A DNA stretch of 64,000 nt from Candidatus Buchananbacteria bacterium. Lineage in GTDB: Bacteria; Patescibacteriota; Patescibacteriia; Buchananbacterales; UBA6539. Under the pieces are notes generated by a model. That model worked only from the letters and a program-made list of their open reading frames with translations. It was not told the origin of the DNA and searched no databases. The first letter of the stretch is position 1. Each line of letters begins with the position of its first letter. The stretch spans positions 49,470 to 113,469 of the forward strand of contig JABWCG010000002.1 in the NCBI GenBank assembly GCA_013359225.1, in the 5' to 3' direction. The position numbers and the translations under genes are program-made. Below, piece by piece: positions 46,586 through 57,701 of the stretch.

Positions 46586-47074
46586 ATGAAAAAAGGCTCA
46601 ATAACATTTCTTCAGATAGTCATTGTAGTTCTGGGCATTGGTGCTCTCGCTCTCTTGCTCTGGGAACCTCGCGTTGAGGGCGTAAATGCGAACGCCACTA
46701 CGCTTCGTGAGATATATTTTGATGATCCCTTTTTGGCGTATGTGTACATCGGCTCCATTGCTTTTTTTGTTGCGCTCTATCAAGCGTTCAAACTGCTCGG
46801 GTACATAGGACGAAGTGAAGTATTTTCGCACCAGGCCGTAAAAGCTCTACGGACTATAAAATACTGCGCGTTGACCATTATTGCTTTTCTTGTGGGCGCG
46901 GAAATTTATATCAATATTGTTCAGCGCAGAGTGGAGGAAGATATTGCGGGAGGCGTCATGGTGGGTCTTTTTCTGATTTTTGTTTCAATGGTTGTCGCGA
47001 CCGCCGCGGCCGTGTTTGAAAAAACGTTACGAACCGCCGTAGAGATAAAAACCGAGAACGATTTAACAGTATAA
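46586..47074 (+). CDS. DUF2975-like membrane protein
   Basis: 162 aa, 4 TMs; immediately followed by a YozG-type HTH gene (the typical DUF2975-HTH pair). Confidence 0.45.
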   Translation: MKKGSITFLQIVIVVLGIGALALLLWEPRVEGVNANATTLREIYFDDPFLAYVYIGSIAFFVALYQAFKLLGYIGRSEVFSHQAVKALRTIKYCALTIIAFLVGAEIYINIVQRRVEEDIAGGVMVGLFLIFVSMVVATAAAVFEKTLRTAVEIKTENDLTV

Positions 47075-47084
47075 GGAGATTACT

Positions 47085-47288
47085 ATGGCAATCATCATTA
47101 ACATTGACGTTATGTTGGCAAAGCGGAAAATGAGTGTTACCGAACTTGCCGAGAAAGTCGGCATTACCATGGCTAATATTTCCGTATTGAAGAATGGCAA
47201 GGCAAAAGCTGTCCGCTTCTCAACTTTAGAGGGAATTTGTAAGGCCCTGGAATGTCAGCCCGGTGATATTTTGGAATATAGGAAGTAG
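47085..47288 (+). CDS. small Cro/C1-type HTH transcriptional regulator (YozG-like)
   Basis: 67 aa starting MSVTELAEKVGITMANISVLKNGKAKAVRFSTLEGICKALECQPGDIL. Confidence 0.7.
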   Translation: MAIIINIDVMLAKRKMSVTELAEKVGITMANISVLKNGKAKAVRFSTLEGICKALECQPGDILEYRK

Positions 47289-47475: not shown

Positions 47476-47823
47476 ATGACAGAAATCCTACATAATCCAA
47501 CAAACCCAACAGAATTGGGTACTCTGCGGGACACATCGGTTGCCAGTCAAGCACCTAAAGCAAAATTTGACGATCCTTCAAGGGTTGGTCAAAAAAAAGA
47601 GCAGAAGCGCACGCGAGAGAAGAAAGACGCGTTTGTGGCAGCTTGTAAAGGTCCCGTGAAAAGTATTGTTACCATGTGCAGAAAAGTTGGAATACACCGC
47701 GACACCTTTTATGCCTGGCGGCGAGCCGATCCGGAGTTTGTAAAAAGGATCCACAACAGCCGAGATGTTTTTTTGACTGAGTTGGAGGCAAGTCTTAAGG
47801 CGCGGGATAAATCCGACACTTAG
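47476..47823 (+). CDS. HTH DNA-binding protein of terminase-small-subunit / IS-transposase HTH type
   Basis: MCRKVGIHRDTFYAWRRADPEF is the characteristic helix-turn-helix of phage TerS / ISxxx OrfA proteins. Confidence 0.4.
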   Translation: MTEILHNPTNPTELGTLRDTSVASQAPKAKFDDPSRVGQKKEQKRTREKKDAFVAACKGPVKSIVTMCRKVGIHRDTFYAWRRADPEFVKRIHNSRDVFLTELEASLKARDKSDT

Positions 47824-48010
47824 GCGTAAAATGTAATTGACAATTTCTAACCTAAACTGCTCTTCTGAGCAGCATGGTTTAAAAACTCACGAAGATACTG
47901 AACCCCACGTTCAGCGATTCTTCGTGAGTCATATCGGGAAACTGGTATGGGGCTTAAAAACCCTGCTGGCGTGGGGCTTTGTGTATCTAAAAATTAATAA
48001 CCTAAAACTT

Positions 48011-48919
48011 ATGACCAACATAGCGCATGGAGGAAAGAAGTGGCTAACTTTGGTGGCCCTGGCTATCATAGCCACACCACTTTTAGCTGCCTGCACTCCT
48101 CAAACACCATCAGCCAATAATGGGCAGAAGCAAACTCAAGAGGCTCAGCTTGACACTACGCAAGAATCAGAAGCTGATACTAACCAGCAGCCTGCTGATA
48201 TTACTGAATCGGATCAACAAGCAGATGAAAGCTTTTTAGTCATCCGAGTAATTGACGGCGACACGGTTGAGTTGGAGGACGGTTCACGCGTCAGATATAT
48301 CGGCATCGATACTCCTGAGACCGTGGACCCTTCAAAACCAGTCCAGTGTTTTGGCAAAGAAGCCTCTCAAAAGAATACTGAGTTAGTTTTGAACAAGCAA
48401 GTCAGGTTAGAAAAAGATATCAGTGACAAAGACCGCTACGGCCGGTTGCTACGGTATGTTTATGTTGGTGACACTTTTGTAAACCTGGAATTAGTTAAGC
48501 AAGGCTTTGCCAGTTCATACTCATACCCACCAGATGTTAAATACCAAGACCAGATCGTAGCAGCGCAAACTGAAGCCAGAGAGCAGAAACGAGGTCTATG
48601 GTCAGCCTGCAATACCGGATCAACTAACAACGCAGCACCCCAACTAAACAGTGGTTCGACAAACACCAACACGAATACAGTCACGCCACAACCAACCCCA
48701 ACTACGCCGACCCCGGCTCCGCAAGAACCAGCTACGACACCAACTCAGCAATGTAATATTAAAGGCAACATTAGCGCTGCCGGTGAAAAAATTTATCACG
48801 TGCCAGGTTGTGGTAGCTACAACCAAACTAAAATTGACGAAAGCCAAGGAGAGAAATGGTTTTGTAGCGAAGCCGAGGCAGTAGCTGCTGGCTGGAGGAA
48901 GGCTAAAAACTGTCCTTGA
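48011..48919 (+). CDS. secreted thermonuclease (staphylococcal-nuclease fold) lipoprotein with Thr/Pro linker and extra C-terminal domain
   Basis: Lipobox LLAAC (start at ATG 48011), SNase motifs VIRVIDGDTVEL, RYIGIDTPE and DRYGRLLRYVYV, linker TPQPTPTTPTPAPQEPATTPT, C-terminal HVPGCGSYNQTKIDESQGEKWFCSEAEAVAAGWRKA. Confidence 0.75.
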   Translation: MTNIAHGGKKWLTLVALAIIATPLLAACTPQTPSANNGQKQTQEAQLDTTQESEADTNQQPADITESDQQADESFLVIRVIDGDTVELEDGSRVRYIGIDTPETVDPSKPVQCFGKEASQKNTELVLNKQVRLEKDISDKDRYGRLLRYVYVGDTFVNLELVKQGFASSYSYPPDVKYQDQIVAAQTEAREQKRGLWSACNTGSTNNAAPQLNSGSTNTNTNTVTPQPTPTTPTPAPQEPATTPTQQCNIKGNISAAGEKIYHVPGCGSYNQTKIDESQGEKWFCSEAEAVAAGWRKAKNCP

Positions 48920-49018: not shown

Positions 49019-50194
49019 ATGTCTACACGATTACTAACAAAAATTGAATTAAAGGAGGATCTGGCAAAGGTTCTTCTTAAGCAAGGATACCGAGTTAAAA
49101 ATAGTGTTTTGCAGTTGAGGAAAGATGACCGAGAATCCAAACGTCAAGCTCATTTGCTTGCCAAAGCTGAACGAATTATAGCTCAGGAGAATTTCATTTT
49201 AAAAAACATATCACTCATTGAAAAATCTTTGATTAATGGTTGTGACTTGGATGTGAGTAAAATTAAGCCAAAATTGATCTTGGTGGAACCTCGCAGTGAG
49301 TGGGAAAAAATTTTCCGATGGTGGAGCCTTGTCTGGTGGAGCCTGCCAAATGAAAGGTCTTATGGAAGACAAATGAGATTTATAGTTTGGGACTCATACC
49401 ATAAAGCACCTATAGGTTTAATCGGTTTGCAAAGCCCTATTTTAAGTTGGTCGGTTAGAGATTCGTTTTTAAAAATCAAACCGGAAAAAAGAGATTACTG
49501 GGTAAACCAATCTTTAAGTGCACAGCGGTTGGGAGCGTTGCCCCCATACAATGATGTTTTGGGAGGCAAACTTGTTGCTTCTCTGCTTACGTCAAATGTG
49601 GTACGCAATGAATTCGAAAGAAAATATCGCAACGCTAAAACTGTAATGAAGAACCGTAAGATTCCACCAAGATTGTTATTTATAACAACTACAGGGGCTT
49701 ATGGAAAAAGTAGCATTTATTCTCGGCTCAAATTTGGTGGTCGTGAAATTGTAAAATTTATTGGGTATAGTCACGGAGTTGGCTCTTTTCACATCCCAAA
49801 TTATCTTTATGATAATTTAATAAAATATTTAGCCTCTAAAGACATCGACACCTCAAGGGGCTACGGTTCAGGTCCATCACGTAAATTACGTTTGATTGAC
49901 CAGTCAATGTCACTATTAGGATTTAAACATGGTACCAAACATGACATTAAAAGAGGTGTTTATATTTTTGAACTCACAACCAACTTGGAGGCTGTTATAA
50001 GTAAAGGCGAAAAACCAAAGTGGGTACACAGGTCAGTCAAGGCGCTGAGTAAATACTGGATGGATCGGTGGGGTATCCCTCGTAGTCAACGCGACAATAC
50101 TTACCTTAATTTTAATAAGGACAAATTTATCACCCAAACCATTAAAGAGTTAGAGGGATTTAAAAAATCATATAAAAATATCCGCAATGCCTGA
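49019..50194 (+). CDS. unrecognised basic protein, first gene of the NurA/HerA cassette
   Basis: 391 aa, no TM, Lys/Arg/Trp-rich, no motif I can assign; stop overlaps the NurA-like start by 8 nt (ATGCCTGA). Confidence 0.55.
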   Translation: MSTRLLTKIELKEDLAKVLLKQGYRVKNSVLQLRKDDRESKRQAHLLAKAERIIAQENFILKNISLIEKSLINGCDLDVSKIKPKLILVEPRSEWEKIFRWWSLVWWSLPNERSYGRQMRFIVWDSYHKAPIGLIGLQSPILSWSVRDSFLKIKPEKRDYWVNQSLSAQRLGALPPYNDVLGGKLVASLLTSNVVRNEFERKYRNAKTVMKNRKIPPRLLFITTTGAYGKSSIYSRLKFGGREIVKFIGYSHGVGSFHIPNYLYDNLIKYLASKDIDTSRGYGSGPSRKLRLIDQSMSLLGFKHGTKHDIKRGVYIFELTTNLEAVISKGEKPKWVHRSVKALSKYWMDRWGIPRSQRDNTYLNFNKDKFITQTIKELEGFKKSYKNIRNA

Positions 50195-51392
50195 TTCAAG
50201 CCAGGGACAATCGCAGGTTTATAGACACTTACCCGAAGAATTACTTGGAGATATTCTTGAACATGTTCCTCAAACTGTAGAAAAAATGAATAAAATGTTT
50301 GATATTCAGGACGAACCGATTAAACAAGGCATAGAAACATTAAAACAAAAAAACATGATCACGAGTCTCTCTGGTAATGTTTTTTCAACCTCATTAATTG
50401 CAGTAGACGGTGGAATGGTACTTGAAAAAATGTCAGGTACAGACATTTTGTTGGCCGTTGCAGTAGGAGTTGAGGGTTTGACTGAAGATAAGGGAAGCGG
50501 TTGGGAAAAGGGAAAAAATCAGTTTGTCCAGTGGCAGACTGTTCTTCCACACGACGGAGCGAATGCTCGACTTGCCCAAGGAGTTATGTTTTTGATGGAA
50601 ATGACCGTCCTTTCAAATGATTCACATGAAATACGTATTATGGATGGGACCCACTTTACTCCAATATTGAAAGTTAATAGTTTGCTATCTTCTAACGAAG
50701 AAAAGGCTGGGGCTGAATACAAGCAAGCACTAAAAGATTTTTTAAAGGAAACATATAATAAAATAATTCCTGATATACCTAACATTATTTCATCCGCTTT
50801 AACTGACGATAAGATAGTAGCCATTGCAAAGTACAGTTCCTCAAGGGATATCTTGGATGCCTACTTGAAAGATAAAAATATAAGCCTGGATGACAAAACT
50901 TTTTTTACTCTTGGGCTCTCGGAGAATGAGTATACAAAACCTTTGTCAGTTGGCCAAAGCAAGGAAGAGCGTGGAAAAGTCTGGAACGACTTGCACATAA
51001 AATGTAATTTAAAATTTAGTGATGTTAATGATAATGAGTTAGATACTTTATTTAAAAAAATTATCAAGCCTATCAGAACTCAGGAATTCCCTCATAAAGA
51101 CTCTTCATTATTTTTTACTTATTTTAAACCGTTTAACCAAGGTCCTGCCTACAGAATAGAGATAAAAAAATCTCTTGCGGATGATATCAATAGATTGGAA
51201 AAAGTTCTATTGAGTATTAAAAAGCAAATTGTATTTCCAGAAATTCGAGAACCTTTTCCTCAATACTTAGTTGATCTTATGGCTAAAAGTGTTGCTGGGG
51301 GGTTATTTGCTATTCAAGAGGCCATTAGGTTATCGCCGGAGCTTAATATTGATAAAGGCAAATTCGATTTACTTTTTCCATATAGAACATAA
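50187..51392 (+). CDS. NurA-like nuclease (RNase-H-like fold, 5'-3' exo/endonuclease partner of HerA)
   Basis: SLIAVDGGMVLEK (NurA motif I, catalytic Asp) and IMDGTH further downstream, about 400 aa, immediately upstream of a HerA-type ATPase. Confidence 0.5.
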   Translation: MPDSSQGQSQVYRHLPEELLGDILEHVPQTVEKMNKMFDIQDEPIKQGIETLKQKNMITSLSGNVFSTSLIAVDGGMVLEKMSGTDILLAVAVGVEGLTEDKGSGWEKGKNQFVQWQTVLPHDGANARLAQGVMFLMEMTVLSNDSHEIRIMDGTHFTPILKVNSLLSSNEEKAGAEYKQALKDFLKETYNKIIPDIPNIISSALTDDKIVAIAKYSSSRDILDAYLKDKNISLDDKTFFTLGLSENEYTKPLSVGQSKEERGKVWNDLHIKCNLKFSDVNDNELDTLFKKIIKPIRTQEFPHKDSSLFFTYFKPFNQGPAYRIEIKKSLADDINRLEKVLLSIKKQIVFPEIREPFPQYLVDLMAKSVAGGLFAIQEAIRLSPELNIDKGKFDLLFPYRT

Positions 51393-51411
51393 TTATTAAA
51401 TTAGACTCAAA

Positions 51412-53301
51412 ATGACAGAATCAAAGAAAATTTCAGAAGAATTACTTAAAGTCCTAAATGACCAGTCGCGCGCAATCGTTGGTATCACCGGATCACCGAG
51501 TAATACCTTGGATATAGAAATAGACATAACTGAAACAAGTAAATCAGACCGTGTTTTGGGGCAGATGGTTTATGTTGTTGTTGAGGAAGACAATAGGAAA
51601 GTCTTGGTAATTGGACAAATTATTAAGATTGAAACAAAAAACAGATGGCATGAAGACATGGCCTTTAAGGGAGTTATAAAAAGACATGGGAAGTTGCCTC
51701 ATCTGAGTGGAGCTGCCGACAATAGACTGGCTAAAATCAGCGTCCAGGCATGTTATGATTTAGGCGGTTCAGAGCCAAGAACGCACATCCTTGGAACCTC
51801 TCCTTCAACTGGTGAAAAAGTGCAGAAGATGGATAATGAAGTTATGAAAAAATTGATGGAAAACCATGGCGAATCAGTCACTTATATTGGTAAAGTCTAC
51901 GGTACAGATGTTAACCTGCCATTCTGGTTTAAACATTTTGACAAAACTCTTAGCGGAGAGTTAGGAGCAAAGGACGCTTATCATATTGGAATTTTTGGAA
52001 AGACCGGGTCAGGCAAAACTGTCACCGCTGCAATGGCTTTATTGGGGTATGCTAAGAATAAAAATAACATGAATATACTGGTTTTGGACCCACAGGGACA
52101 GTTTTATGTTGACAACGAACTATTACCTAACGACAAAAAACTTGAACAAGCCGTCGGTGATATTGGGATGAAATACAAAAAGTTTAAAATTTTGGAAGAT
52201 TTATATTTACCAGGCAATGCCTTTGACTTATTTGGTAATCTTTTATTAAAGAGTGGTTTTGTGAGTAAGTCATTCAATATCCTTAGTGACAGGGAGGTGA
52301 ATGCAGCTGACGCAATCTCAGAATATTTAGAATCGTATAATAAAAAAAGTAAGGGTAAGTCGGCAAACTTAACAAAATTATCAGACGAGGGTTATAGCCT
52401 TGATTTAATGAAAAAAACACTTCAGAAATTTACTGAGGTTACAGAAGATGCAAGTGGTAAAAAAAGTTATAGCCGGTATTTGGATATGATATACTCCGAT
52501 GGTCGAAGAAAAGATCAAGTTATTGGAAAATTAAATTCCGTCTTAAGTAATGAAACTTATATTAAAAATTTATTTGACAGACGCTGGAGCCCTGTAGCTA
52601 AGTTATTTGCACAGGTTAAAAATGATGGGACTAATAAGATTACTGTAAATGAGATAATAGATTTAGTTTCATCTGAAACCGACAAAGGAAATTTTGTAGT
52701 CCTTGATATGAGCGAGAGGGGTGGTTCAGAAATCAGTGAGAACTTACAAGCATTGTTTGTGAAGATGGTTCAAGAGGGTCTAATGGAAAAGGGGGAAGAC
52801 TTCTACACCAAAGATAAAAAAGTGAATTGTCTTGTAGTTATGGATGAAGCTCATCGTTTCATTTCTCATGCGTCATCGGACCTCCAGATAGTCGAATTAA
52901 CCAAAGATATTATTGATGCTGTTAGAACCACCCGCAAGTTTGGCATTGGCTATATGTTTATAACGCAGACCATAGAGTCTCTTGATGAGGAAATCTTGAG
53001 ACAAATGCGAATCTTTGGTTTTGGCTATGGACTTACATCTGGATCAGAACTTAGAACGGTTGGCGAAATTATTAACAACCCATCAGCCATTCAGCTATAT
53101 CGCTCTTTTATTGACCCCAGTAGTAACGGTAAGTTCCCATTTATGTTTTTTGGCCCAATTTCGCCACTTTCATTTACTGGGTCGCCATTGTTTTTAGAAG
53201 TTTTTACTGACTATGGTATGTTTGAGACCGTAAATGGTGTCACATCTAATACAGACGCTGGAGGTAAGCCCGAGGAATCAAAAAATGTTGAAAGTAGTTG
53301 A
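51412..53301 (+). CDS. HerA-like (DUF87) FtsK/HerA-superfamily ATPase
   Basis: N-terminal HAS-barrel-like segment (VGITGSP...GQMVYVVVEEDNRKVLVIGQI), Walker A GIFGKTGSGKT, Walker B LVVMDEAHRF, no TM helices (argues against a VirD4/TraG coupling protein). Confidence 0.65.
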   Translation: MTESKKISEELLKVLNDQSRAIVGITGSPSNTLDIEIDITETSKSDRVLGQMVYVVVEEDNRKVLVIGQIIKIETKNRWHEDMAFKGVIKRHGKLPHLSGAADNRLAKISVQACYDLGGSEPRTHILGTSPSTGEKVQKMDNEVMKKLMENHGESVTYIGKVYGTDVNLPFWFKHFDKTLSGELGAKDAYHIGIFGKTGSGKTVTAAMALLGYAKNKNNMNILVLDPQGQFYVDNELLPNDKKLEQAVGDIGMKYKKFKILEDLYLPGNAFDLFGNLLLKSGFVSKSFNILSDREVNAADAISEYLESYNKKSKGKSANLTKLSDEGYSLDLMKKTLQKFTEVTEDASGKKSYSRYLDMIYSDGRRKDQVIGKLNSVLSNETYIKNLFDRRWSPVAKLFAQVKNDGTNKITVNEIIDLVSSETDKGNFVVLDMSERGGSEISENLQALFVKMVQEGLMEKGEDFYTKDKKVNCLVVMDEAHRFISHASSDLQIVELTKDIIDAVRTTRKFGIGYMFITQTIESLDEEILRQMRIFGFGYGLTSGSELRTVGEIINNPSAIQLYRSFIDPSSNGKFPFMFFGPISPLSFTGSPLFLEVFTDYGMFETVNGVTSNTDAGGKPEESKNVESS

Positions 53302-53939
53302 CAGAGATAAGGCAGTTGATATAATTAAGTTATTACAATTCAAAACGCAGGTAGGAAGTATGTTACTGGGTCATTTTGACCCGGTGGGACGGACACAAAA
53401 AATCCGCACTACTCAGGACTAAAAACTTGAGCACAGCTTCTATACGCAGACGGTTGTTTACTGGGCGTACTGACCATTTGTAACATTTAGGTCAGCCTAT
53501 CGGCGGGTCTTGTGTCTTGAAAAAGCAAGATTGAGCTTAGGAGCCTCCAAATTTTTTCACGAATTAACTATTCGTCCAAAAATTTGGGGGCTTTTTGTAT
53601 TTCACCAGCTACATTCCGTCCCGAGTTGGACAGGTGCACGTAGCTGGGTACCTGTTCAGCCCGGGGCGGATTTTGCTTAATAGAGCAAATCAGCAGGCTG
53701 AAGGGATAATTTAATCAGGCTTAGGAAGGTGCTATAACCAAGATGAATATTAGAGAGGAAAATCTACAACGCTTCATCGACCTCTACGAGAGGAAATATG
53801 CTGTCCGCTTAGGCAGGCAGGAGGCTTATAATATGTTTTTAAAGCTGATAAATCTGGTAAAAATAGCCAATTTTGATGCTCACAGCCAGCAATTTACTGA
53901 CCACACTTAATGTAGTATCGTTGTGGTTGGGAGAAAAAT

Positions 53940-55601
53940 ATGCAAAATCAAGAGGAAAAATTAATCTATGTCTCCTACAGGAGAAAATCAAGCGAGTCTG
54001 AAGATCGGCAGACTTTAAGCCTGGATTCCCAAAAAAAGGAGCTTAGTGCTTTTGCCGACAAATATGGGCTAAGGGTTAAATTTGATTTTGCAGAATCTCA
54101 GTCAGCCTATAGTCGTGGCCGCCCGAAATTTTTAGAAATGGTTGAGTTAATTGAATCAGGTCAGGCTAATGCCATATTGGTTTATCATATTTCCAGATTG
54201 GCGAGGAATATGACAGACGGTGGTTTGATTATTGATATGCTAAAGGACGGAGTTATTAAAGAAATAAGAACACCGCACGAACAATATACAAAAGATTCCG
54301 GCCAGGAATTTATATTAGCCCTTAATTTTGCCATGTCAAAGAAGAGCTCTGACGATACCTCAGAGTTTGTTAAAAGAGACATTGAAGCAAAATTACGAAA
54401 GGGAGAATGGCCCGGCATGGCGCCGACAGGCTATTTGAATCTTGATAGTAATGGAAAAATAGCTGGCAAAAATTATAGTTTAGAAAAACAAATTGCATTG
54501 AGCAAAATTAAAAGACCATTGAGACGGATAGAGCATGATCCATTTTTAGCACAACTAATTTCGAAATTATTTGAGAAATCAGCGACCAACCAATACATAC
54601 TGGATGAACTGGCTGAAATGGCTATGGAGTGGGGTATTATTGGCAACAGAAGCGGCAAAAAGCTCAGCGAATCATCAGTTTATCGTATTTTAACCAACCC
54701 TTTCTATTACGGGGCTATTCGTTGGAAAGAGACTATTATTGAACCAGAGGATTTGCCAGCACAAAGCCGCCATGAAGCAATTATCAGTCGGGAGTTATTT
54801 AACAGAGTTCAGGAAGTCCTGGGTTTAAGGACAAAATACGTCAGTCCCAAACGATGTTATAAATATTCTAATATTATGACTTGTGGTATCTGCGGCGGCC
54901 ACATGTCAGGGATTACCGCCAAGGATATTACCTACTATCGTTGTTGTAAGTGCAGAGGCGTCGCTTATGTGAAAGAGGGTGAGCTTGAAAAACAGATAGT
55001 GGCTTTTTTAGAAACTATGACCATAGACGAAGATTTTTATAAGCTGGCAATCGAGGAAATAAATCATGCTAATGAGAACGAAATCAAAACCAGAGATGCA
55101 ATCAAGGACCAGCAGGATCGGGAGCTAAAACATTGTCAGATCAGATTTGATAATTTACTAAGGCTTAAAATTTCACCTGAAAATAAAAACGGAGAACTTT
55201 TAAGTGAGGCTGATTTTGTCAGACAGAAAAAGATCATTGACGAAGAGATGTCATCTATCAAGGAAAGGATTGGTGACACAGACAGGCAAAGTCAGAATTG
55301 GTTTGATTTGTGTGTAGAATACTTTGATTTTACAACCAGGCTGGTTAATAAGTTTAGAGAAGCCGGTCCGGAGAAACGTCGGGAGATATTTGAATTTTGT
55401 TACTATAACCCGCAAATAAACGCGCAAATACTAACGAATAGCGCGAATAACCCGCATAAGTTTATCATTCAGGCAAATTCCATAAACAGCGCCACTATAA
55501 CCGCAAATAATGACTTAAGTAAAACAAAAACAGCAGCCAATATGGCTTCTGTTTCCGAATGGCGGGAGCGAAGGGGCTCGAACCCTCGACCTTCTGCGTG
55601 A
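53940..55601 (+). CDS. large serine recombinase (integrase)
   Basis: N-terminal resolvase catalytic domain (YVSYRRKSSESEDRQTLSLDSQ...ILVYHISRLAR), recombinase domain, zinc ribbon (CGICGGHM...YYRCCKCRG), coiled-coil; 3' end overlaps the tRNA-Asp gene. Confidence 0.85.
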   Translation: MQNQEEKLIYVSYRRKSSESEDRQTLSLDSQKKELSAFADKYGLRVKFDFAESQSAYSRGRPKFLEMVELIESGQANAILVYHISRLARNMTDGGLIIDMLKDGVIKEIRTPHEQYTKDSGQEFILALNFAMSKKSSDDTSEFVKRDIEAKLRKGEWPGMAPTGYLNLDSNGKIAGKNYSLEKQIALSKIKRPLRRIEHDPFLAQLISKLFEKSATNQYILDELAEMAMEWGIIGNRSGKKLSESSVYRILTNPFYYGAIRWKETIIEPEDLPAQSRHEAIISRELFNRVQEVLGLRTKYVSPKRCYKYSNIMTCGICGGHMSGITAKDITYYRCCKCRGVAYVKEGELEKQIVAFLETMTIDEDFYKLAIEEINHANENEIKTRDAIKDQQDRELKHCQIRFDNLLRLKISPENKNGELLSEADFVRQKKIIDEEMSSIKERIGDTDRQSQNWFDLCVEYFDFTTRLVNKFREAGPEKRREIFEFCYYNPQINAQILTNSANNPHKFIIQANSINSATITANNDLSKTKTAANMASVSEWRERRGSNPRPSA

Positions 55602-55636
55602 CAGGCAGACGCTCTAACCAACTGAGCTACGCCCCC
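55560..55636 (-). tRNA. tRNA-Asp (anticodon GUC), CCA encoded
   Basis: The reverse complement folds as a canonical cloverleaf: acceptor GGGGGCG/CGCUCCC, D-arm GCUC-AGUUGGUUA-GAGC, anticodon arm UCUGC-CUGUCAC-GCAGA, T-arm GAGGG-UUCGAGC-CCCUU, 3' GCCA. Confidence 0.85.
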
Positions 55637-56858: not shown

Positions 56859-57251
56859 TGGTGGAGATGAGGGGAATCGCACCCCTGTCTAGAAAGAAGA
56901 GATAAAGTAGGTTTACAAGTCTATTCAGCTTTTAATCTTGATCGAAGCGTCTAAAACTGACGAAACCGCGTTCGATCCAGCCTGGGTTGTTTTAACTGAT
57001 TAGTTAGGCAGCTAAGCAGTCTAGCCTAATGTATAGCACCAGGGTCCGGCTATTAGGCGTGGTCCGGTCTGATGGCTTTGGGTTTTAGGCCAAAGCTGGA
57101 GCTAAAGCCAAGGAGCTGAAAGCGCCTCGAACTTTAGCGACAAGTGATTTGGCACTTATCTTTGATGGCAGGTTGATATTTACGAGCTAAACCGTACCAA
57201 CGCTCGACTTGAGTACTTTAAACCAAAATTCTATCGATTTTAGTCATCCCC
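56859..57251 (-). ncRNA. ssrA: tmRNA (SsrA)
   Basis: 5' GGGGAUGACU... pairs with 3' ...CAUCUCC-A-CCA including the G3:U wobble; T-arm GGGG-UGCGAUU-CCCC; internal reading frame ending ...GCU UUA GCU CCA GCU UUG GCC UAA (tag ending ALAPALA*); immediately downstream of smpB. Confidence 0.75.
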
Positions 57252-57701
57252 CTAACGCCTGATTTTATTGCGGAGTTGGCGTTCAAGGTCGCGTTTTTTG
57301 ATATCTTCGCGCTTGTCTCGCTGCTTTTTCCCCTTTACAAGACCAATTTCAATCTTGATCAGACTTCCTTTAGTATATACAGAAATAGGCATAATTGTCA
57401 AGCCTTGTTCTTTACTTTTGCCGCGTAAATAATCAACCTCTTTTTTAGTCAAAAGGAGTTTGCGGCTTTGCGTCGGATCATAGCCAATTTGAGTCCGGCT
57501 GGCGAACTTGTAAGGGGAGATATGAGCATTTAACAGCCATACTTCGTTTTTGTGGTCAACCGTCACGTGGCTACCCTTTAAGTTAATTTGCCCGCCCTTA
57601 ACTGATTTTACTTCCGGCCCGGATAATACAATACCGGCCTCGAATTTTTCCAGGACCTGATACTCGTGCAATCCTTTTTTATTGACAGTAATGCTGGGCA
57701 T
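57252..57701 (-). CDS. smpB: SsrA-binding protein SmpB
   Basis: 149 aa starting GLHEYQVLEKFEAGIVLSGPEVKSVK with ISPYKF and basic C-terminal tail. Confidence 0.9.
   Translation of the reverse strand: MPSITVNKKGLHEYQVLEKFEAGIVLSGPEVKSVKGGQINLKGSHVTVDHKNEVWLLNAHISPYKFASRTQIGYDPTQSRKLLLTKKEVDYLRGKSKEQGLTIMPISVYTKGSLIKIEIGLVKGKKQRDKREDIKKRDLERQLRNKIRR

Follow-up and report, generated by a model that had tools for sequence, protein, structure and literature searches.

A mobile three-gene cassette couples the Druantia hallmark protein DruA to a NurA–HerA nuclease motor, with a probable role in defence against invading DNA

Results

Gene content of the cassette

A stretch of 64,000 nucleotides from Candidatus Buchananbacteria (contig JABWCG010000002.1, positions 49,470 to 113,469 of the forward strand), referred to throughout as the window, contains a three-gene cassette of about 4.3 kb that joins a homologue of DruA, the hallmark protein of the Druantia type I anti-phage system, to a NurA-type nuclease and a HerA-type ATPase. 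The genes follow one another on a single strand:

49019-50194, + strand: gene 1, a DruA/DUF4338-family protein of 391 amino acids, with a predicted GNAT acyltransferase fold and N- and C-terminal helical extensions (Pfam, PADLOC)
50187-51392, + strand: gene 2, a NurA-family nuclease of the RNase H fold, 401 amino acids (Pfam NurA)
51412-53301, + strand: gene 3, a HerA-family (FtsK/HerA superfamily) P-loop ATPase, 629 amino acids (Pfam, PADLOC and PDB profile matches)

Genes 1 and 2 overlap by 8 nucleotides, as an initial annotation of this DNA had noted, and are likely to share one transcript and to be translationally coupled; a spacer of 19 nucleotides separates genes 2 and 3. The open reading frames (ORFs) and motifs quoted in that annotation (IAVDGG and MDGTH in gene 2, GKTGSGKT and DEAH in gene 3) were likewise all verified in the sequence. 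By comparison with their relatives, the three ORFs can be taken as real genes rather than chance ORFs, because each has hundreds of homologues and the motif residues are invariant over 27-29 loci. The GC content of the trio (0.356-0.376) is among the lowest in the window, with values of 0.44-0.47 just upstream.

Gene 1 is a DruA protein with a predicted acyltransferase fold

Gene 1 was originally described as having no recognisable domain, a description that does not survive profile searches: the protein matches Pfam PF14236 (DruA/DUF4338) with an E-value of 6.3e-56 and the PADLOC DruA model PDLC00002 with an E-value of 9.4e-87 over residues 8-374, that is, at full length. Since gene 1 is DruA, the cassette recombines two known modules rather than adding an orphan partner to a HerA–NurA pair. 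Our AlphaFold2 model of gene 1 (31 homologues; predicted local distance difference test score (pLDDT) of 86.7, predicted template modelling score of 0.86) assigns it a GNAT acyltransferase fold, in agreement with the reading of DUF4338 as a GNAT domain by the Aravind laboratory (PMC10853773). The top structural match of this model, only marginally so, is Mom. After the fourth GNAT strand the protein reads QRLGALPPYNxxLGGKL, in which P175, P176, Y177, G183 and K184 are invariant and G182 nearly so; the loop contains glycines and does not match the canonical acyl-CoA motif Q/R-x-x-G-x-G/A. As modelled, gene 1 probably encodes an acyl-CoA-dependent transferase. No DNA-binding or base-flipping element was recognised in DruA, a PDB sequence search with gene 1 detected no solved structure, and no paper in the searchable literature, which takes in few subscription journals, gives DruA a mechanism. 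A Foldseek search of the gene 1 model against BFVD returned DruA-like folds in the giant viruses Faunusvirus (E-value 2.6e-16, 358 aligned columns), Yasminevirus and Dasosvirus, and in an uncultured Caudovirales fragment (E-value 7e-8).

Druantia type I, a system validated by experiment, has DruA as its hallmark (bioRxiv 10.1101/2024.04.14.589459), and for this system the canonical druABCDE operon of the Ralstonia plasmid pUW163a, encoding a DruA of 413 amino acids followed by proteins of 477, 623, 371 and 1851 amino acids, served as the comparison. Gene 1 is 33% identical to pUW163a DruA over 93% of its length, and both stand first in their operons. An alignment of trio-type and canonical DruA proteins keeps D125, R147, D148, Y177, Y203, S231, Y234, H258, H308 and R312 invariant, and this common set of polar residues suggests that the biochemistry of DruA is the same in the trio and in Druantia. 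The back-ends differ, being NurA and HerA here and DruBCDE there, where DruE is a protein of about 1800-2100 amino acids (DEAD/DEAH helicase with DUF1998; 1851 in pUW163a). No ORF longer than 629 amino acids lies near the trio in the window and no DruE-type helicase is found among its neighbours there; at the other loci the family is absent from the 25 most frequent Pfam families of 136 neighbour genes and from the eight large neighbours examined. An account of the trio as a 'mini-Druantia' was considered and rejected: DruB, DruC and DruD of pUW163a carry no Pfam domain, and their comparison with genes 2 and 3 gave a BLASTP E-value of 0.11 and hhalign probabilities of 0.1-0.6%. DruC, with 623 amino acids, is close in size to gene 3 yet has no detectable similarity to it. 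DruA therefore appears to be a portable front-end, with NurA–HerA as one alternative motor back-end and DruBCDE as another.

Genes 2 and 3 encode a NurA–HerA pair

The early assignment of genes 2 and 3 to NurA and HerA is borne out by Pfam scores above the cut-offs and by profile matches to solved HerA proteins. Gene 2 scores 30.4 bits against Pfam NurA PF09376 (cut-off 21) and carries the motifs SLIAVDGG (D74) and IRIMDGTH (D153, H156). Its invariant residues D74, E138, D153, H156 and D363 (27-29 loci) form a putative catalytic set, and it combines an RNase H-like fold with conserved acidic and histidine residues, as NurA proteins do. Its similarity to the archaeal and bacterial NurA proteins of the Sulfolobus, T. 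kodakarensis and Deinococcus type is remote, at about 15% identity, and a PDB sequence search with gene 2 gave no match. Homologues of gene 2 are labelled by NCBI as 'DNA double-strand break repair nuclease NurA', and those of gene 1 as DruA/DUF4338.

Gene 3 scores 37.3 bits (cut-off 23.2; E-value 4e-9) against Pfam PF01935, the DUF87/HerA central domain, and matches the PADLOC models for HerA (E-value 4.5e-16) and mad8 (E-value 4.5e-14). A profile of its family searched against the PDB returned TdpA (6e-8), the HerA of 8wiv (1e-7) and Sulfolobus HerA (5e-7), as well as 9c1m, 8xau and 8ziq; these chain matches cover the ATPase core, the earliest beginning at profile position 98 (9c1m). In the N-terminal part of gene 3, which the initial annotation read as HAS-barrel-like, residues 24-112 are highly conserved. 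The Walker A motif GKTGSGKT (K202) and the Walker B motif VVMDEAH (D478, E479) are both present, and over 28 loci G196-K202, D478/E479 and R505/R508 are invariant, with either of the two arginines a candidate, by conservation, for the arginine finger. Weak matches to the conjugative and DNA-import ATPases TrwB, VirB4/TraC and CedD fall mostly over the P-loop, and gene 3 has neither a transmembrane segment nor a coupling-protein architecture.

The trio is conserved as a unit

A NurA-anchored pattern scan over one genome per species (185,579 species) yielded 29 loci, a lower bound, and a DruA-anchored scan of metagenomes yielded 80, in which NurA and HerA were counted only where enough downstream sequence was available. 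All three proteins occur at 29/29 of the genome loci, with HerA at 28/28 where the contig allows, and at 28 of the 29 they lie on one strand in the order DruA–NurA–HerA; at the remaining locus (L014) DruA lies downstream on the opposite strand. From the DruA side, NurA was present at 67/71 and HerA at 55/58 of the evaluable metagenome loci. Most of the apparent exceptions belong to a divergent subtype ordered NurA–HerA–DruA (L117, L118, L121 and L123), and true exceptions without the full trio are confined to L105 and L116. The same permuted order recurs in L033-L035, whose hosts are suggested to be archaeal by neighbouring genes for an archaeosine TGT with PUA and for SerK. The association thus holds through permutation of gene order and among proteins as divergent as about 25-35% identity.

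Measured at 26 loci, the spacing between genes lies almost always between -17 and +54 nucleotides, with one outlier that stems from a start-codon call, and NurA and HerA are adjacent in more than 100 loci. Pairwise protein distances are correlated between DruA and NurA (Pearson 0.82), DruA and HerA (0.84) and NurA and HerA (0.88), values that show co-inheritance and by themselves are no proof of physical contact. Taken with the counts above, the tight gaps and this co-variation uphold the original proposal of a HerA–NurA pair with a conserved third partner.

Searching 1.84 billion cluster representatives (50% identity) placed 39 in the DruA-linked NurA subfamily at E-values up to 1e-30 and 417 at up to 1e-3. 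More distant NurA relatives lie directly after recA (L040) or are solitary (L032, L037), and the occurrence of such relatives without DruA marks the DruA-linked clade as a defined subfamily. In two loci of a distant NurA branch (L038, 693-1529; L039, 55-891) a 278-residue HTH_7/DUF1699-like protein stands upstream of NurA–HerA in the place of DruA, overlapping the nurA start by 8 nucleotides, and this replacement suggests that the first gene of the cassette is an exchangeable module. At L105 (1669-6200) a DruA of the trio type that shares 55% identity with gene 1 was found with neither NurA nor HerA; it adjoins a 381-amino-acid protein, a DnaB-type helicase and RusA, surroundings that resemble a phage or plasmid replication region.

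The cassette crosses phyla in varied surroundings

The hosts span at least 10 phyla, with protein identities of 50-70% across groups, and include Patescibacteria, Bacteroidota, Omnitrophota, Alpha-, Gamma- and Deltaproteobacteria, Ignavibacteriales, Zixibacteria, Nitrospirales, Eubacteriaceae, Bdellovibrionales, Brocadiales and loci with archaeal-looking neighbours. Patescibacteria, or candidate phyla radiation (CPR), are over-represented among the matches, with 9/29 genome loci in addition to the window. Because identities of 50-70% between phyla require horizontal transfer, the cassette can be read from these sequences as moving horizontally as a unit among bacteria, and this transfer probably reaches archaea as well. 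The prospect, raised at the outset, that the trio is a core DNA-repair operon passed on by vertical descent is at odds with the same identities.

No conserved fourth gene emerged when the 136 neighbouring genes of the genome loci were compared: none of their families occurs more than eight times, and the commonest, B12-binding and radical-SAM, come from one Nitrospirales neighbourhood. At individual loci the trio adjoins HsdR (L003), a DNA methylase and a ResIII protein (L012), or a PLD-SNF2 protein and a type IIG restriction-modification enzyme (L018 and L019). Elsewhere it lies near FRG and HNH genes (L041), in an element with a tyrosine integrase, a relaxase, MobC, PemK and an M78 peptidase (L042), near a PIN-MazE pair and a transposase (L043), or amid transposases inside a rho/yebC-ruvCAB region (L044). 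Serine recombinases homologous to the one in the window were found near the trio in 5/29 genome and 11/80 metagenome loci, frequencies that make the recombinase an occasional vehicle and not a component. No relatives of gene 2 were found on viral contigs in IMG/VR or in the phage records of INPHARED.

The island and its flanks

In the window the trio stands between a recombinase/tRNA-Asp junction and unrelated genes, with the following features around it:

46586-47288, + strand: a DUF2975 membrane protein, then a Cro/C1-type HTH_26 regulator
47476-47823: a transposase-like helix-turn-helix (HTH) protein of 115 amino acids
47837-48919, + strand: a staphylococcal-nuclease homologue, lipoprotein-type, not part of the system (Pfam SNase, E-value 3.6e-29)
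47849-47963, + strand: a LOOT RNA, RF03000 (Rfam, 82.5 bits versus a gathering score of 46.4), within the 5' part of the ORF listed from TTG 47837
48770-48919, + strand: a 'sunset' domain at the nuclease C-terminus (NCBIfam NF051437, E-value 7e-12)
53940-55601, + strand: a large serine recombinase, the probable carrier element, given for context only (Pfam Resolvase, Recombinase and Zn_ribbon_recom)
55560-55636, - strand: tRNA-Asp, overlapped by the recombinase 3' end
56859-57251 and 57252-57701, - strand: transfer-messenger RNA (tmRNA; 97.6 bits) directly adjoining smpB, the housekeeping flank of the island

The recombinase ORF reads 42 nucleotides into the 3' end of tRNA-Asp, which is encoded on the opposite strand, so that its last residues (…RGSNPRPSA) are translated tRNA. 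The idea that the trio rides on a recombinase island is plausible: a serine recombinase at tRNA-Asp and the low GC content of the trio speak for it, whereas no att-type direct repeat of the tRNA-Asp 3' end occurs elsewhere in the window and a second boundary was not found there. Genes infC-rpmI-rplT, together with tRNA-Asp, adjoin tmRNA and smpB on the housekeeping flank. The DUF2975, HTH_26 and transposase-like HTH genes occupy the interval from a citrate-transporter gene to the nuclease and may also be cargo of the island.

A functional link between the trio and the neighbouring thermonuclease had been left open at first; the nuclease is absent from 29/29 genome and 80/80 metagenome loci (0/109), and it was rejected as a fourth component. 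Since the LOOT RNA occupies the 5' part of the listed ORF, the nuclease gene probably starts at an ATG near 48011 (MTNIAHGGKKWLTLVALAIIATPLLAAC, a lipoprotein-type signal), which would place LOOT in its 5' leader. The 'sunset' domain is also annotated by NCBI on variant ribosomal proteins L17 and L20. On the other side of the trio, a sigma-70 consensus promoter with 12/12 matches (TTGACA, 16 nt, TG-TATAAT) begins at the gene 3 stop codon (53298-53610 region, + strand) and is followed by a structured region of about 270 nucleotides (minimum free energy -96 kcal/mol, z -6.7), closing with a long hairpin that has a U-tract. This region is a candidate small RNA; as a part of the system it was rejected, since it is not conserved behind the trio at 44 other loci and has no Rfam match.

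Discussion

The comparative analysis presented here describes a self-contained, mobile three-gene cassette that probably protects its host against invading DNA such as phages and plasmids. Among the grounds for this reading are the nature of the obligate partner, DruA being the hallmark gene of an anti-phage system, and the defence genes that adjoin the trio at some loci. The initial annotation had put forward an undescribed HerA–NurA defence system, and much of that proposal stands, in that NurA, HerA and a third gene do form a mobile unit for which no description was found in the literature; what changes is that the third partner is DruA, while the defensive role is one that we infer.

The wider family of HerA-based systems provides a framework for placing the cassette. 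The SIR2–HerA and DUF4297–HerA anti-phage systems share with it a HerA ATPase encoded beside an effector enzyme in a compact mobile operon, and the gene 3 profile matches the HerA subunits of their solved complexes (8wiv, 9c1m, 8xau and 8ziq) in addition to the PADLOC HerA models; they differ in that the effector here is NurA, with no SIR2 or DUF4297 domain, and in having two components rather than three. The phage protein Gam binds DNA ends, which fits a recognition of DNA ends by machines of this kind. Gam, which HHpred predicts to be a Mu-like host-nuclease inhibitor, inhibits two other HerA-based systems (bioRxiv 10.1101/2024.04.14.589459). TdpAB, a HerA-like TdpA and a NurA-like TdpB solved as a complex (8wet), differs from the trio in its lack of a DruA-like partner. 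It is a modification-dependent restriction pair that acts on phosphorothioate-modified DNA, whereas nothing at the trio points to phosphorothioate dependence or to dnd/ssp genes. The restriction module of DndFGH variants likewise combines a DUF4338-GNAT domain with a nuclease and a HerA/FtsK-type ATPase, the latter in DndH (PMC10853773), but the GNAT domain occurs there as an occasional N-terminal fusion to DndF and not, as here, as a stand-alone and obligate first gene, and homologues of DndF, DndG and DndH are not present in the trio.

The archaeal and bacterial NurA–HerA pairs of Sulfolobus, T. kodakarensis and Deinococcus are only remotely similar (HerA E-value about 1e-6), and the cassette is set apart from them by its obligate third partner DruA and by its patchy, horizontally transferred distribution. 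Current debate concerns whether NurA–HerA serves in repair or acts as an antiviral nuclease: the T. kodakarensis complex degrades both strands from any DNA end, for which its authors propose an antiviral role (PMC12977600).

Several observations weigh against a defensive role for the cassette. It is known from genes, predicted folds and comparison; the predicted model of gene 2 is of moderate confidence (pLDDT 65.5), and PADLOC-DB 2.0 holds no model for this gene. As a raw share, about a quarter to a third of the inspected loci have restriction-modification, toxin-antitoxin or mobility genes beside the trio, and many loci have purely housekeeping neighbours, such as rho/yebC-ruvCAB (L044), dnaX/dnaB (L036) and MetH with radical-SAM (Nitrospirales). 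In the Nitrospirales the position of the trio looks conserved and vertically kept. The NurA–HerA pair of Deinococcus is a repair factor.

If the cassette is defensive, HerA would act as a hexameric, ATP-driven translocase of double-stranded DNA, as expected from its family and its intact Walker A and B motifs. It would dock a NurA dimer in the manner of the solved HerA–NurA and TdpAB complexes and feed DNA ends to the NurA active sites, whose putative catalytic residues are invariant, so that linear or broken foreign DNA would be digested processively. DruA, made first from the shared transcript, would decide when or on what the nuclease motor acts. Phages evade Druantia type I by means of altered N6-methyladenine, which points to DNA-directed discrimination (bioRxiv 10.1101/2024.04.14.589459). 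We favour a sensing or regulatory role for DruA, as a subunit that would license the nuclease by acylating a protein, either a component of the system or a protein of the invader. Even granting a defence function, this sensing and licensing by acyl transfer is a tentative proposal, somewhat short of an even chance, and it forms the weak link of the model. Held less likely are a protein-acylating co-effector, as the authors who analysed DUF4338 on DndF read that domain (PMC10853773), and a writer of a covalent self-mark on DNA.

The last of these roles leads to an alternative that we consider unlikely, in which DruA modifies host DNA with an acyl mark and NurA–HerA destroys DNA that is unmarked or bears a foreign mark, a form of restriction-modification that would also explain the presence of DruA in Druantia type I. 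The Mom protein of phage Mu is a GNAT-fold protein that modifies adenine. Druantia type II carries a DNA methylase where type I has DruA, and the TdpA–TdpB pair of 8wet offers a precedent for modification-dependent restriction by proteins of the HerA and NurA type. DruA usually heads its operon; at L014 it has its own transcription on the opposite strand, an arrangement common among modification genes. The evasion of Druantia type I through altered N6-methyladenine, noted above, would suit a DNA mark as well. A DNA-marking enzyme is harder to reconcile with the failure to recognise a DNA-binding or base-flipping element in DruA, with the protein-targeting role favoured by the Aravind laboratory, and with the solitary DruA in the phage-like DnaB/RusA setting of L105, which ill fits obligate self-marking, although orphan modification genes do exist. 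In its most specific form, with DruA as a nucleic-acid-directed acyltransferase writing an acyl-type epigenetic mark new to biology that is read by NurA–HerA here and by DruBCDE in Druantia type I, the idea is a long shot.

An accessory role in DNA repair or recombination, with NurA–HerA resecting double-strand breaks, DruA as a regulatory acetyltransferase and the cassette spreading by aiding genome maintenance, is also improbable. NurA and HerA are classically end-resection factors, as the NCBI name of the gene 2 homologues reflects, and the ruvCAB and dnaX/dnaB neighbours of L044 and L036, the distant NurA relative directly after recA in L040 and the apparently stable chromosomal position in the Nitrospirales would all suit such a role. 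Against it stand the absence of Mre11/Rad50 from the window and from the annotated neighbour genes inspected, the great rarity of the cassette (at least 29 loci in 185,579 species genomes), cross-phylum identities incompatible with vertical descent, carriage on integrative elements and beside restriction-modification or toxin-antitoxin genes, and the obligate partnership with an anti-phage hallmark gene. Archaeal HerA–NurA has moreover been argued to be unable to make the 3' overhangs needed for recombination (PMC12977600).

A purely selfish function without host defence, for example in replicating or processing the carrier element, in pumping DNA as HerA/VirB4-like proteins do or in keeping out rival elements, is very improbable. 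In its favour, gene 3 weakly matches TrwB, VirB4/TraC and CedD, mostly over the P-loop, a recombinase or integrase is found nearby both in the window and at about 15% of the other loci, and transposases have the RNase H fold in common with NurA (PMC3417536). Gene 2, however, belongs to the NurA family and not to the transposases, and gene 3 lacks the membrane and coupling-protein features of such pumps and best matches the HerA proteins of defence and repair complexes. The mobility genes beside the trio are of several unrelated types (serine recombinase, tyrosine integrase with relaxase, DDE transposases), and most loci have none, so that the trio behaves as cargo and not as the core of an element.

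Returning to the defensive reading, the searchable literature holds no description of a DruA–NurA–HerA trio and no paper that mentions both 'Druantia' and 'NurA', and a prior mention of the trio may nevertheless exist. The components are already known, as is the design in which a HerA motor works with a nuclease effector and DruA serves as the hallmark of defence; what appears to be new is their conserved combination in three genes. In this combination DruA is joined to a DNA-processing machine that ranks among the best understood, which makes its role dissectable without the 1,850-residue DruE and its gene of about 5.6 kb.

In summary, the obligate tie to a defence hallmark gene and the horizontal spread over at least 10 phyla provide independent comparative evidence for the antiviral side of the NurA–HerA debate. 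The cassette is enriched, among the matches, in the Patescibacteria/CPR, a group whose immune repertoire is poorly known. Should the acylation of DNA by DruA prove true, the cassette would embody restriction-modification logic carried out by GNAT chemistry instead of methylation or phosphorothioation, common to bacteria and probably archaea. If validated, the trio would represent a new HerA-based system and would show DruA to be a portable front-end module; without being revolutionary, it offers a compact handle both on the function of DruA and on the question of repair versus immunity in NurA–HerA.

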